64,000 nt of DNA from a virus (lineage: Duplodnaviria > Caudoviricetes), in IMG/VR virus record IMGVR_UViG_3300026094_000002; one strand, 5' to 3'. The position numbers and the translations under genes were made by a program. Under the pieces are notes generated by a model, which saw nothing but the letters and a program-made list of their open reading frames with translations, did no database searches and was not told where the DNA came from. Positions 2,015 to 62,560 of this stretch are shown piece after piece. How positions within the stretch are numbered: position 1 is the stretch's first letter; every line of letters begins with the position of its first letter.

Positions 2015-2334
2015 CGATTTAACTCCATAAGAATCTGATTTAACATCCAGTCTTTGCGGCCAGACGCTACTTCACGCTGACCAGAATAATTCCCAACATC
2101 ACCCATCCATGCGAATGGTACTGTCGCAACAATCGCTGCCATATTACGCTGTGGCTCTGTTGGTCGCATACTCTGAATAAAGTGTATCTGTTCTTCTTTT
2201 TTTGAACAATCAACTTGATAGTGATTTAAACTATCAACACTCATTGAATATGTCGGTGCAGATGATGTGCTACATGCTGTCGTCAGTAGGCTCACAATGA
2301 TAACGCATGCTCCAAATACGGTGTTTAATTGCAC
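2005..2334 (-). CDS. Putative lipoprotein 2 (GTG start)
   Basis: AGGAG-7nt-GTG at 2334; signal peptide ending LLTTAC (non-canonical lipobox); overlaps the upstream lipoprotein gene by 65 nt. Confidence 0.6.
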   Translation of the reverse strand: MQLNTVFGACVIIVSLLTTACSTSSAPTYSMSVDSLNHYQVDCSKKEEQIHFIQSMRPTEPQRNMAAIVATVPFAWMGDVGNYSGQREVASGRKDWMLNQILMELNRCP

Positions 2335-2536
2335 GAATACTCTCCTGATGTTGAGCGTTGGATTGGAATACGCCTTTAGGGCGTTCAAGTTGGCTCTCCA
2401 GCCACGGAATAATATGATGCGTATTTGCACAGTCATTTGGAATGAGTGCTACATCAGTAGGTGGGCTTTGTGACGTCAATCCAGCACACCCACTTAGTGA
2501 CAGTGCAAATGCACTTGTGATTATAATCCGTTTCAT
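2270..2536 (-). CDS. Putative lipoprotein 1
   Basis: MKRIIITSAFALSLSGC has a basic N-region, a hydrophobic core and an LSGC lipobox. Confidence 0.75.
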   Translation of the reverse strand: MKRIIITSAFALSLSGCAGLTSQSPPTDVALIPNDCANTHHIIPWLESQLERPKGVFQSNAQHQESIRAIKHRIWSMRYHCEPTDDSM

Positions 2537-2603: not shown

Positions 2604-2795
2604 TTAATTATTATTAACGGGGAGTGCCTTTTCTACTTCAGCAACAGTTGCACGAGCAACCTCAAAGTTTGCTGCAGTTACAGTTTCATAATATGAACGC
2701 AACCACTCTGGCTGAATGAATCTGGACACAGAATTATAATTTTTCTCAATGTTGTTGAGAAGTTCTTGTGTTGAAAAATGTTGAATGTAACTCAT
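2604..2795 (-). CDS. Hypothetical 63-aa protein behind a ROSE-like leader
   Basis: Strong AAGGAG RBS; helical, Ala/Glu-rich C-terminus. Confidence 0.7.
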   Translation of the reverse strand: MSYIQHFSTQELLNNIEKNYNSVSRFIQPEWLRSYYETVTAANFEVARATVAEVEKALPVNNN

Positions 2796-10837: not shown

Positions 10838-11626
10838 ATGTACTTGTCATTTGATTTAATTTCAGATTTACATCTTGAAACTCGAGATGGCTTTAACTGG
10901 GATGGACAGCCAACCAGCCAATGTTGTGTGGTGGCTGGAGATATTTCTAAAAATATTCAGGATACGGTTTCTTGTCTTACCCATTTGTCCCAATGCTACA
11001 AAAAAGTCGTTTATATTGATGGTAATGCAGAGCATCGTTGGAATTATTCTGATCTTGGTTCAAGTTATCAAACCTTAGTTGAAGAATTGCAAAAAATACC
11101 AAATGTTATTTTCCTGCAAGATAACATGGTCATAATCAATGGTGTTGCGATAGTCGGTACCAATGGCTGGTGGACATACGACTTCAATCCCAACATGGAT
11201 TTTGAAAACTCAGTAAAATACGCTGTTGATAGATATGACATTAATGTTGGTGATGCAATGACACTACGTGCTATGGCAATTAATGATGCGAATTATCTTG
11301 CAAACACTGTCAACCGGTGTCAGACAATGCCAGATATTAAGAAAATTGTTGTTGTTACACATACTGTTCCTCACGAAATGATTACAAAACACGATGAAGA
11401 ATTTGACGATGATCTTCAGTATAATCTGTTGGGCAATTCATATATTAAACAAATTTTAGAACAAGACACGGAAAGAAAAGTTGATACGTGGTGCTTTGGA
11501 CATTACCACAAAGATGTTGATTCTGTTATTAATAATATCCGATATGTTAATAACTGCTTGGGTGAAAAGGGATCAACTTGGGCCAAGTCTGTTTATCACC
11601 CAAAGCGTATTGAAGTAATAATTTAA
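10838..11626 (+). CDS. Calcineurin-like metallophosphoesterase
   Basis: SDLH, AGD, GNAEH, VTH and FGHYH motifs; TAAATA 6 nt upstream. Confidence 0.85.
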   Translation: MYLSFDLISDLHLETRDGFNWDGQPTSQCCVVAGDISKNIQDTVSCLTHLSQCYKKVVYIDGNAEHRWNYSDLGSSYQTLVEELQKIPNVIFLQDNMVIINGVAIVGTNGWWTYDFNPNMDFENSVKYAVDRYDINVGDAMTLRAMAINDANYLANTVNRCQTMPDIKKIVVVTHTVPHEMITKHDEEFDDDLQYNLLGNSYIKQILEQDTERKVDTWCFGHYHKDVDSVINNIRYVNNCLGEKGSTWAKSVYHPKRIEVII

Positions 11627-11937
11627 TCTGCTTCGGGCTCAATTTTAATATTTAAAGGATACCCGTTGCTACGTGCACTTACTGTAATCTCAATGCCCTT
11701 TTGTTCTGCAATCTCATATGGAAGAACTGCCACACACGCAGATCCCGCTTCATGAACTTCTTCAGTAATCTTTTGAGCAGTAGCCTCAGTATAATTAAGA
11801 TGATTCATCAAACTTTCAACAACAAAATCATATGCAGTACTATTGTCATTAATATAAATTAGTTGGTACATTGGTGGCTCACGCAACTCTGTATTAATTT
11901 CTACTTTTGTCTCGCTTGATGCGGATGATGTTGTCAT
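11623..11937 (-). CDS. clpS: ClpS N-degron adaptor
   Basis: EPPMYQLIYINDNST, VHEAG, YEIAEQK and GYPL. Confidence 0.9.
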   Translation of the reverse strand: MTTSSASSETKVEINTELREPPMYQLIYINDNSTAYDFVVESLMNHLNYTEATAQKITEEVHEAGSACVAVLPYEIAEQKGIEITVSARSNGYPLNIKIEPEAD

Positions 11938-11961
11938 TTGTTTCCTCGTAAATTAAATTAG

Positions 11962-11988
11962 TAGAGCAGGGTCTAAGACCCTGCTCTA
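11962..11988. terminator. 12-bp perfect hairpin between hsp20 and clpS
   Basis: TAGAGCAGGGTC-TAA-GACCCTGCTCTA; only a weak T tract follows. Confidence 0.6.
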
Positions 11989-12006
11989 TAGTTTGCAAGA
12001 GACTGA

Positions 12007-12444
12007 TTATCCCTTTTGGGTAATTGCAATAGACTTAGGCTTCATTGTCTCAGGGACAATACGCTCTAAACTAATAGTAAGAATTCCATTCTCAATAACC
12101 GCATTATTTACCTCTACATATTCGGCAAGCGTAAATGAACGCGTGAAGTCTCTTGATGAAATACCATGGTAAAGATATTCAATATCTTCGTTTTTGTTTT
12201 CCTGTCTACCTGTAACAGTTAGGTGTCCTTCATGGTATTCAATATCTATCTCTTCTTTATTGAAACCAGCAACTGCCACCTGAATTTCATAACGATCTTC
12301 ATCAACACGAACGATGTTATATGGTGGATAATTGCCATTGGAACCAGCGGTATCAACTTGATCCATTACGCGATCAAAAATTCGATCCATTCCAATTGTA
12401 TTTCTGTAAAACGGTGATAGGTCTAATGAAGTAATTTTAGTCAT
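12007..12444 (-). CDS. Small heat shock protein (IbpA-like Hsp20)
   Basis: IGMDRIF, YPPYNI, VAVAGF, LYHGISSRDF and NGILTISL. Confidence 0.95.
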   Translation of the reverse strand: MTKITSLDLSPFYRNTIGMDRIFDRVMDQVDTAGSNGNYPPYNIVRVDEDRYEIQVAVAGFNKEEIDIEYHEGHLTVTGRQENKNEDIEYLYHGISSRDFTRSFTLAEYVEVNNAVIENGILTISLERIVPETMKPKSIAITQKG

Positions 12445-12515
12445 TGTTGTCCTCCTTTATTAAGCAAGTGACTAATAGTGCAACCCAAGTTGGCGTTGCA
12501 CATGTATTTATTATA
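12445..12515 (-). promoter_or_regulatory. hsp20 leader with TAAATA promoter and ROSE-like RNA thermometer
   Basis: TAAATA at 12505-12510; hairpin 12478-12501; CUU(G)CUU-AAUA-AAGGAG at 12452-12468. Confidence 0.7.
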
Positions 12516-12532
12516 CACTAATTACGGTTCAT

Positions 12533-12772
12533 TTAAAAGGGCTGATTCTTTTTTTCATCGTTTAATTTTTTAAGCCAACGCTTTCTCGCAGCGGCTTTTT
12601 TAGCCTTTCTTTCTTGGCAGGGCTTTTCATAGAATTCATGTTTCCGAACATCTTTTAGCACACCAGATTCATCAACTTTTTTCTTAAACTTTTTAAGTGC
12701 ACGTTCAAATTGTCCGTCACGAACCTCTACGCGATTTCCTTTAATCTTTATTTCGTCAGTTTTCTTTCTCAA
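12533..12772 (-). CDS. rpsU: Ribosomal protein bS21
   Basis: [19 protein letters not shown]...RKHEFYEKP...KKAAARKR; TTG start. Confidence 0.9.
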
Positions 12773-12816
12773 TTGTCAATACCTTTGAGTTCCTTTAATT
12801 ACATTTATGTGTTGTT

Positions 12817-14022
12817 TTAGAAATTGTAAAATTTCTTATCAATTAAACTTGCTGGTTGTTCAACAAGTTCTTTATTTACAATAATTTTGTTAATATTGTT
12901 TTCTCTATACCGAACCATTTCAAACATATGTGGGAGCAATGATTTTTCTATGTTTGAATGCAACCCACGGGCACCTGTTCCACCGACCAGCGTTTTATCA
13001 GCGATCTCATCAAGTGCATCTGGAGTAATTTCAAGTTCAATATCTTCTTGAGCAAATAATGTTTTGTATTGATTAACTAAATTTCCATCAACTTCTGTTA
13101 ATATTGATATTAATGCACCCTTATCTAATTCTGTTAGCGGGACAACATTTGGGAATCTTCCCACAAATTCAGGAATCATTCCAAAACTAACAAGATCGTC
13201 TGGGGTAACCTTGCCTAAATCCACTTCTTCCGACGGAGAGACAATGTGTGCAGTAAAACCAGATGCTGTTCCTGATTGACGGCGACGGACAATATCACCC
13301 AGACCGATAAACGCTCCACCTGCAATGAACAGTATGTTTGACGTATCAATATCAACTGTTCCCGAGTTTGGATTTTTTCTACCACCCACTGGAGGCACCC
13401 GGCATACAGTGCCTTCTACTATTTTTAACAGTGCCTGTTGAACGCCTTCGCCAGAAACATCTCTAGTGATAGAAGAGCTTTCGCTTTTTCTGGCAATTTT
13501 GTCAATTTCATCAACAAAAATAATGCCATTTTCACATTTTTTAACGTCACCATCAGCAGCAATTAATAATCTTGAAACCAAACTCTCAACATCATCACCT
13601 ACATATCCTGATTCGGTTACTGAGGTAGCATCAGCAATAGTAAATGGAACATCCAAATACTTTGCTACAGTTTGTGCTAATAATGTTTTTCCTGAACCAG
13701 TGGGACCAATCATTAAGACATTTGATTTTGCCAAATTATTTTCATTTGTATTTGAAATTCTTTTATAGTGGTTTGCAATTGCTACACTTAAGACAATTTT
13801 GGCCCAATCTTGTCCAAATACATTTTTATCAAGAGTGTTTTTAATTTCTATTGGATTAATATTAACACTATCAGAAGAACCATTAATTTGTTCTTTTAAT
13901 AAATCTTGGCACATTACAACACATTCATTGCATATACCCACAGAATTATTAACAATAAGTTTCTGAACTTCAGATTCTGGGCGATTACAGAAATTACAGA
14001 TATGAGGAGAATTATCAGTCAT
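12817..14022 (-). CDS. clpX: ClpX AAA+ unfoldase
   Basis: CNFC..CNEC zinc finger, GPTGSGKT, GYVG, DEIDK, RDVSGEGVQQALLK and GARGL. Confidence 0.95.
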   Translation of the reverse strand: MTDNSPHICNFCNRPESEVQKLIVNNSVGICNECVVMCQDLLKEQINGSSDSVNINPIEIKNTLDKNVFGQDWAKIVLSVAIANHYKRISNTNENNLAKSNVLMIGPTGSGKTLLAQTVAKYLDVPFTIADATSVTESGYVGDDVESLVSRLLIAADGDVKKCENGIIFVDEIDKIARKSESSSITRDVSGEGVQQALLKIVEGTVCRVPPVGGRKNPNSGTVDIDTSNILFIAGGAFIGLGDIVRRRQSGTASGFTAHIVSPSEEVDLGKVTPDDLVSFGMIPEFVGRFPNVVPLTELDKGALISILTEVDGNLVNQYKTLFAQEDIELEITPDALDEIADKTLVGGTGARGLHSNIEKSLLPHMFEMVRYRENNINKIIVNKELVEQPASLIDKKFYNF

Positions 14023-60985: not shown

Positions 60986-62560
60986 TTAGAACATTGCAAT
61001 GAATGGCATTGGGTCACGCCGCTCACCGTGGTCACTCATTTGGCTGGTTAATTCAACGTGGTAGTTCTGTAATTGTTGTAACATTCTGACTACCAATACG
61101 GTTGCCATTACAAGGTCATCAGTCTCTCCCGGCTTTGCTGCATAACTTGCACCACGTGCAACAAATGTTTTTAATTCACTCATCAATGACCGACTAAAAA
61201 TCTGCATTTTCTCTGCTTCAAGCATTGTTTTTAATTTAGAACACGCTGCTAATTTTGGTTTATTACTGGTGTTAAATCCTTTTCTCAGTCTTCTTCCACC
61301 ACCACTACCGCTTGGTTGTTTGCTATCACTTAGAAAATATCCTTGTATATTCTCTTCGCCATAATCAGCAATAGAAATAAGTGATGCTTCACCAATGGTA
61401 TTATTCTCAACAGAATAGTAGATACTATTGACGTCATTAACCGTTTCATTAATATGTTTGCATATATCAGCAAGAATTCTTATTTGTTCAGGAATGTCAG
61501 TACGATTGTTTTTCCACTCTGCAACTTGTGTTGAGGTATTTGCCTCAAAAACTTGGATTGCAGAAAAATCACCACCTGTACCCAAACTTGGGTCTAATCC
61601 TACTACATATATATTACCCTTTTTAGGGCGATGATACCAACGAACTTCACCAGTTTTGTATAGTGGTTCTGATGGTTCTAAATCAATTAACTTGGCGGGG
61701 GCAATAAGTGTTTCATCCTGAATCAAAAAAGAACATTCATGTTCTCGCTCAAACCTATCGTCACCCAGTGCAGCACGTTGTTCAGCCGCCCATTTTTCAT
61801 CTCTATCAGGATGTTCTTGCCAGTATGCTCGGAATGCTTTAAACCCATTTATGCCTAATTCTGTTTTATTGCCAAACTCATCTTCTGTTTTGTTAGCACC
61901 TTTCCATAGGTAAGCAAACTGATCTTCATCTGAGTTTGGTGTTGAAGTAATAATTGCTTTACCACCAGTTGAGAGTGTTGGTGATATAGAAGTCCAGAAC
62001 TCTCTGGCAATAGTTGGCCTGACATATGCAAATTCGTCAGAATACAATAGTGTTATACTCATACCACGACCGGTATTTTCAGTTGTTGTTTGTGATACTA
62101 TTCGGCTACCATTATCAAACTCTATACTGCCTTTGTTATAACTTGTTGCACCTGCTCTAATATGATCTGGACACAATTCATAAGCATAACGAACGCGTTG
62201 CATTATTTCCTGAGCACCCAAATATTTGTGTGCTGCAACTAATATTGTTGAGTCTGGGACAAACATTGCATACCATAGTAGATAACCCGCAGCACATGTG
62301 CTTTTGCCACATTGTCTGGGGAGCATTGATATAGAAAATCTGTAATTATGATAGGTATCAATCAAACGGGTTTGGAACTCAAATGGGGCATACAACATTC
62401 TTCCCTTGGTGGGATGCTGAATGTAAAAGAAATTCTTAAGAAAATATTGTGGTCCAGTATTGGGGTCAGCACACGCGGCAAACTCTATTAACTGTTCTTC
62501 TGAATAACTTTCTTGTTTATGTGGGTTCTTTATTAGAACCCCTTCCATTGTTTTACTCAT
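60986..62560 (-). CDS. Terminase large subunit (T4 gp17-like)
   Basis: PRQCGKST, LYSDEFA, TSTPN, GLDPSLG and DDLVMA. Confidence 0.93.
   Translation of the reverse strand: MSKTMEGVLIKNPHKQESYSEEQLIEFAACADPNTGPQYFLKNFFYIQHPTKGRMLYAPFEFQTRLIDTYHNYRFSISMLPRQCGKSTCAAGYLLWYAMFVPDSTILVAAHKYLGAQEIMQRVRYAYELCPDHIRAGATSYNKGSIEFDNGSRIVSQTTTENTGRGMSITLLYSDEFAYVRPTIAREFWTSISPTLSTGGKAIITSTPNSDEDQFAYLWKGANKTEDEFGNKTELGINGFKAFRAYWQEHPDRDEKWAAEQRAALGDDRFEREHECSFLIQDETLIAPAKLIDLEPSEPLYKTGEVRWYHRPKKGNIYVVGLDPSLGTGGDFSAIQVFEANTSTQVAEWKNNRTDIPEQIRILADICKHINETVNDVNSIYYSVENNTIGEASLISIADYGEENIQGYFLSDSKQPSGSGGGRRLRKGFNTSNKPKLAACSKLKTMLEAEKMQIFSRSLMSELKTFVARGASYAAKPGETDDLVMATVLVVRMLQQLQNYHVELTSQMSDHGERRDPMPFIAMF

Follow-up and report, generated by a model that had tools for sequence, protein, structure and literature searches.

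A short two-hairpin ROSE-like leader RNA precedes hsp20 genes of phages

Results

The stretch of DNA analyzed here (hereafter the window) comprises 64 kb of the genome of an uncultured phage of about 305 kb, and carries on its minus strand, at 12007–12444, an open reading frame encoding an IbpA-like small heat-shock protein of 145 aa. The earlier note on this DNA had called an hsp20 gene here from the letters alone, and the protein-family match (PF00011, E 3.7e-21) establishes that the gene adjoining the leader downstream is of the ibpA/hsp20 type. Relatives of the protein in IMG/VR contigs are 52–71% identical to it, and its nearest bacterial homologs, from Sphingomonadales, a Gammaproteobacteria MAG and a Thiotrichales bacterium, are 43–50% identical. 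The gene is part of a one-strand proteostasis cluster (11623–14022, minus strand) that comprises ClpX (12817–14022), S21 (12533–12772), hsp20 and ClpS (11623–11937), and in which only hsp20 carries a ROSE-like leader. The order hsp20-ClpS-phosphoesterase is kept in a jumbo-phage relative, the 345 kb IMG/VR contig G004, at the second (L239) of two hsp20 loci (L236 and L239), whose leader matches score 49.3 and 49.0 bits. Other genes of the window encode a terminase (60986–62560), a DnaB-like helicase, a ribonucleotide reductase, a radical SAM protein and a DNA ligase. The phage is present in soil, lake and sediment metagenomes from several studies; window DNA is found, as contigs, in 15 public runs, and the single RNA run among the data covers only 12216–12375, inside hsp20.

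Direct reading of the minus strand of 12437–12515 yields a layout that agrees with the earlier description, with its coordinates correct. From 5' to 3', the strand carries a promoter-like region (12505–12515), a first hairpin (12478–12501), a short spacer, and a second hairpin that contains the Shine-Dalgarno (SD) sequence of hsp20. Hairpin 1, defined by the minimum-free-energy (MFE) fold and by alignment to hairpin I of the ROSE_3 model, extends from G12501 to C12478 and consists of a 7-bp lower stem, a single bulged G (G12494), a 3-bp CCA/UGG upper stem and a 3-nt loop. The core of hairpin 2 (12451–12468), defined by the sequence, the ROSE_3 alignment and the fold, consists of an anti-SD CUUGCUU (12462–12468) with a bulged G at 12465, a loop AAUA (12458–12461) and an SD AAGGAGG (12451–12457), which is followed by six bases and then by the AUG start codon (12442–12444). 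This is the CUU-G-CUU-AAUA-AAGGAG arrangement of which the earlier note had claimed that it pairs the SD, and its pairing is imperfect, containing one bulged G and a U-G pair. In the MFE fold, a 7-bp outer stem is added to hairpin 2 by pairing of UUAGUCA (12469–12475) with UGACUAA (12437–12443), so that the U and the G of the start codon, together with codons 2–3, are also paired. The length of the leader, about 60 nt, is counted from a predicted, unmapped transcription start.

The MFE fold of the leader computed with RNAfold contains both hairpins, including the one proposed at 12478–12501, and has a free energy of −21.3 kcal/mol (z = −4.4; none of 200 shuffled sequences folds as well). The centroid fold likewise consists of two hairpins with the SD within the 3' one. 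In the MFE fold of the window leader, the anti-SD/SD helix adopts a register with a G-G 1x1 loop; the relatives support the bulged-G register instead, as judged by the anchored count described below. A fourU thermometer was considered as the identity of the element and is ruled out, because the anti-SD reads CUUGCUU. Sequence differences within and between phages were also noted. At position 12456, the contig of one soil run lacks one A of the AAA run that precedes GGAGG, and the length of the A run differs likewise between related phages (AAUAAAGGAG vs. AAUAAGGAG). For two lake runs, the best-supported differences listed include many in hsp20 and none in 12445–12503, an absence that is a mere hint.

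To the ROSE_3 model of Rfam (RF02523), the window leader aligns over the full length: a sensitive scan of 1 kb yields, as its sole meaningful match, 12439–12502 on the minus strand, covering model positions 1–69 of 69, with 35.0 bits and E 2.9e-5. The comparison with ROSE models that the earlier note had suggested thus succeeds in part, in that the ROSE_3 match is complete and is nonetheless below the gathering score of 43 bits, and canonical ROSE (RF00435) gives no match to the window leader up to E 10 in the same sensitive scan. Because its score is below the cut-off, the leader is missed by a standard annotation pipeline; a scan of the whole 64-kb window at Rfam gathering thresholds returns zero matches. 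The leaders of relatives score 27–34 bits against ROSE_3, and in a ROSE_3 search of related jumbo-phage records even the hsp20 leaders went undetected.

The likeness to ROSE_3 extends to particulars. The short ibpA thermometers of Pseudomonas have a 5' UTR of 61–62 nt that forms two hairpins, with a U(U/C)GCU anti-SD, local melting confined to hairpin II, and, for functional thermometers, predicted stabilities of −15 to −21.5 kcal/mol (Krajewski, Nagel and Narberhaus 2013; PMC3669281). The phage leader likewise has two hairpins only, in about 60 nt, before an IbpA-type small heat-shock gene; its hairpin I bears a bulged G and is G+C-rich at the top (GAUGCC...GGGUC-like); in its hairpin II, a U(U/C)GCU anti-SD pairs imperfectly with the SD; and its predicted stability lies within the Pseudomonas range. 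It differs from the Pseudomonas elements in that it resides in a phage genome, in that the core of its helix is richer in A-U, in that its score is under the Rfam cut-off, and in that its start codon is predicted to lie in an extra outer stem, whereas that of Pseudomonas is unpaired. With canonical ROSE elements of rhizobia and other alpha-proteobacteria it shares the anti-SD motif, the bulged G in the last hairpin and the class of the target gene; however, those elements span about 70–120 nt, with three or four hairpins expected in a leader of about 100 nt, and the phage leader folds into two. Taken together, sequence, alignment and predicted fold support the view that the hsp20 leader is a ROSE-like element of the short, two-hairpin form, with the Pseudomonas ibpA type (ROSE_3) as its nearest known counterpart.

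The leader is kept by hundreds of other phages. In six IMG/VR contigs with hsp20 genes 52–71% identical to that of the window, an alignable leader is present in which ATAAATA and ACUUGC are invariant, TATAAT is not, and the arms of hairpin 1 vary jointly (GCAAC/GUUGC, GUAGU/GCUAC, ACGAA/UUCGU). A DNA pattern for the anti-SD/SD arrangement matched at least 120 stretches in IMG/VR, essentially all of them immediately 5' of an hsp20 ORF; in this pattern-found sample, 91 of 112 folded leaders have a single 5' bulge in the hairpin 1 MFE structure, and all but one of these bulges (90 of 91) consist of a G. Since this sample had been selected by the leader itself, a second, leader-blind sample was drawn, comprising 80 of 590 confirmed viral hsp20 loci picked by a C-terminal protein motif only. 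For its analysis we used a covariance model, R1, made from 15 leaders of equal geometry because MAFFT alignments mis-register the 3' arm of hairpin 1. R1 matches just 5' of the ATG in almost all of the 80 leader-blind loci.

Covariation across the leader-blind sample, which the earlier note had named as a check, is pronounced in hairpin 1. The alignment is model-fitted and thereby biased towards structure, and the margin over controls is very large: 96.9% of cells pair, and double changes occur in 9/9 pairs (one example pair is GC in 36 leaders, UA in 17, AU in 9 and CG in 9); the observed values are reached in 0/500 shuffles; and the covariation score of 0.53 falls to 0.05–0.11 when the partner is slid by 1–3 columns. 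These data bear on the possibility that the hairpin arose by chance, or terminates transcription of the S21 gene upstream, its place beside an SD being a coincidence. The region is AT-rich, short complementary stretches are common in it, and one terminator-like site was called nearby, on the other strand; yet the massive covariation in about 75 leaders, the z-score of the leader fold and the location of the hairpin 3' of a conserved promoter motif all argue against this possibility, which we regard as hardly tenable. A chance hairpin is refuted by the comparative data, and hairpin 1 as a terminator is ruled out because no U-run follows it on its 3' side.

Hairpin 2 is nearly invariant and therefore offers little covariation to measure, and covariation computed for it from the model-made alignment is uninformative because loop lengths vary. 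We therefore used an anchored count, with the register fixed on the bulged G and on the first G of GGAG. In 71 distinct leaders counted in this way, all six pairs are 97–100% pairable, with a U-G/C-G alternation (62/9) and five double changes that include a few UA-to-AU swaps. About 71 of 75 leaders have the U(U/C)GCU anti-SD. Of 70 leaders folded without constraints, only 22 show the canonical SD/anti-SD pairing in the MFE structure, and 36 have the AUG paired to sequence 5' of the anti-SD; the complement that forms the outer stem, GUCA(U)/(A)UGAC, recurs within the clade of the window. We conclude that both helices are under selection across phages, and that the predicted two-hairpin architecture, with compensatory changes, is kept in about 75 distinct viral hsp20 leaders. 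With the full-length ROSE_3 alignment, the U(U/C)GCU motif and the bulged G, this bears out the reading of the leader as an RNA of the ROSE kind.

Cultured phages carry the leader as well. It precedes hsp20 in Methylophilales phage Melnitz (ROSE_3, 34.1 bits) and in phage C48C1 (ROSE_3, 26.8 bits), and by inspection the same leader precedes hsp20 in Pelagibacter phage HTVC115P, Synechococcus S-RSM4, Prochlorococcus P-SSM4 and the Sinorhizobium jumbo phage Phosso. ROSE or ROSE_3 matches below threshold also precede the closest bacterial homologs of the window hsp20. Most simply, phages acquired gene and leader jointly from proteobacteria, and selection then maintained both.

The sequence preceding the hairpin is itself conserved. 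The earlier note had read a TAAATA promoter there, and the wider sample agrees: in 51 of 75 distinct leaders, the 8-mer NATAAATA, which we take to be the T4/cyanophage late-promoter consensus, ends 4–7 nt upstream of the modelled hairpin (variants TATAAATA in 30, AATAAATA in 17, GATAAATA in 3 and CATAAATA in 1). In the window, AATAAATA (12505–12512), a 7/8 match to the T4-type late element TATAAATA, overlaps a sigma-70-like −10 element, TATAAT (12510–12515), which has a weak −35 element, TTTAAA, at 12532–12537. A good −35 element (TTGACA, 16–19 nt upstream) is present in 14 of the 51 motif-bearing leaders and absent from 37, and in leaders with TTGACA the motif can double as a sigma-70 −10 element. 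The sequence upstream of the hsp20 leader contains no CCCCAT-type −10 element of a sigma-32 promoter. Judged by its sequence, the motif resembles a phage late-type or −10-like element, not a sigma-32 element, a further difference from the Pseudomonas thermometers. Under either the late-type or the sigma-70 reading, transcription is predicted to start at, or 1–2 nt inside, the foot of hairpin 1. Elsewhere in the window, ATAAATA occurs on the coding strand nine times, mostly in intergenic positions just 5' of start codons (minus-strand positions include 60983, 38915, 36173, 16835, 12511 and 2867), and it may mark one promoter class of this phage.

By homology, we infer that translation of phage hsp20 is temperature-gated. 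Transcription would probably start 5–6 nt after NATAAATA, at the foot of hairpin 1, and hairpin 1 would serve as a stable scaffold. In hairpin 2, CUUGCUU would pair imperfectly with the SD, and the outer stem would add cover on the start codon. At low temperature, the SD, and here the start codon, would be paired, and the 30S subunit would therefore be kept away; upon warming, the weak helix would open in a zipper-like manner and Hsp20 would be translated. The bulged G and the U-G pair, which are the destabilizing features of ROSE thermometers, are retained in the phage leaders, and the modelled stability of the hairpin 2 core across the family (median ΔG −0.3 at 37 °C, −1.35 at 25 °C and −3.1 at 10 °C) is marginal, as a melting switch would need.

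Nearest-neighbor melting of the window leader itself, the check over temperature that the earlier note had proposed, goes the other way: the profile is flat from 0 to 50 °C, with no clear opening below 55 °C, because the 7-bp outer stem keeps the modelled SD paired to about 55 °C, and the soil and lake metagenomes from which the phage comes are cooler than this modelled opening. A flat profile, in a phage from soil and lake samples, is in keeping with an alternative in which temperature is not the physiological signal, and in which the ROSE-derived leader acts as a constant translational damper and 5'-end stabilizer that limits and prolongs Hsp20 synthesis late in infection. A stable 5' hairpin right at the predicted start is a typical mRNA-stabilizing feature, and a promoter that is not of heat-shock type is in line with the same alternative. 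A plain damper, however, would have no need of the destabilizing features of the ROSE anti-SD, the bulged G and the U-G pair, which are kept in about 71 of 75 leaders, nor is the core helix of more than marginal stability; and pseudomonal leaders of equal overall stability respond between 25 and 42 °C, with 4- to 8-fold induction (PMC3669281). We consider a constant damper unlikely. Also counting against the thermometer reading as set out above are the sub-threshold Rfam score, the low recovery of the canonical pairing by unconstrained folding, the scant covariation of hairpin 2, and the start position, since initiation of the late type, 6 nt past NATAAATA, would lie 1–2 nt within the foot of hairpin 1.

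The strictness with which AACUUGCUUAA is conserved, greater than pairing alone demands, raises the alternative that the leader serves as an operator, recognized in trans by a translational repressor of the phage, by a host protein, by a small RNA, or by ribosomes that the phage S21 has altered. The genomic context offers candidates of a general kind, in that the phage S21 gene lies directly 5' of hsp20, regA adjoins hsp20 in S-RSM4, and C48C1 has a gene with a translation-repressor annotation close by. Nevertheless, many leader-bearing contigs contain neither S21 nor regA, and the motif is also conserved in bacterial ROSE elements, which work protein-free in vitro (PMC3669281). We judge an operator to be very improbable. 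A ROSE-like leader with a late-type start, a block in the cold and a zipper-like opening upon warming is, as a whole, the best explanation of the data, and one that we consider probable.

A second ROSE-like leader is present in the window, at 2793–2868 on the minus strand (R1 match 2790–2850, 37.6 bits, E 3.6e-6), and folds into the corresponding elements: it comprises GATAAATA at 2861–2868, a hairpin 1 at 2824–2855 with a bulged G2844, an anti-SD CUCGCUU at 2813–2819 with a bulged G2816, an SD AAGGAG at 2802–2807, and an AUG at 2793–2795 that begins an orphan ORF of 63 aa (2604–2795, minus strand). An Rfam scan of this second leader gives no match up to E 5. Applied to 852 kb of other viral DNA, R1 matched hsp20 leaders and two further leaders only, so a chance match is an unlikely explanation of the second leader. 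One of the two further leaders (L083:3004–3065) lies directly 5' of dnaK, and the other (L033:5073–5130) lies before a 14-codon mini-ORF that is followed by a sigma-70-like promoter and groES. For the 63-aa ORF, Pfam and PHROG families yield no match, structure-atlas matches are uninformative, and the search for viral loci related to the protein found none beyond one cluster, 84% identical; in the leader of this relative, U-A replaces a C-G pair of hairpin 1, a compensatory change, and the loop of hairpin 2 differs. On the 3' side of the 63-aa ORF, an 88-aa ORF (2270–2536, minus strand) begins MKRIIITSAFALSLSGCAG, a lipoprotein-like N-terminus that resembles a signal peptide with a lipobox, and its product may be a lipoprotein. 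The presence of the leader on a non-chaperone orphan ORF, another difference from ROSE_3 elements, suggests a small co-regulated gene set.

Discussion

The leader of phage hsp20 is a phage-borne ROSE-like RNA for which, by homology to its bacterial counterparts, thermometer function is plausible. A 2024 paper counted three phage RNA thermometers, none of the ROSE type: lambda cIII, the SPbeta blyA fourU and the sigma-70 fourU (PMC11182007). Like the leader described here, these are cis-acting leader structures over the ribosome-binding site of a phage gene; however, they are structurally unrelated to ROSE, being an alternative-fold switch and fourU elements, each is known from one or a few phages, and none is on a chaperone gene. 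Full-text literature searches found no published link between ROSE elements and phage hsp20.

A more far-reaching proposal, which we put forward tentatively and do not ourselves favor, is that phages moved the host ROSE switch from sigma-32 to their own late promoter, forming a phage-run proteostasis regulon (hsp20, dnaK, the mini-ORF before groES, and the 63-aa ORF) that would be tuned by its weak, A-U-rich helix to cooler lakes, soils and oceans. If this proposal were true, the orphan ORF would encode a new stress-linked phage protein. Irrespective of it, the Rfam cut-off overlooks an entire phage branch of ROSE-like leaders, and a search model of the R1 type can find further phage genes under the same control, of which ORF 2604–2795 is one example.

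A ROSE-like leader is the rule for phage hsp20, including that of cultured cyanophages and of phages of SAR11 (Pelagibacter) and OM43 (Methylophilales). If the leader senses temperature, some of the most abundant viruses on Earth would adjust their chaperone synthesis to temperature directly, bypassing the heat-shock sigma factor of the host, and such direct coupling, if true, would bear on the outcome of infection under warming.
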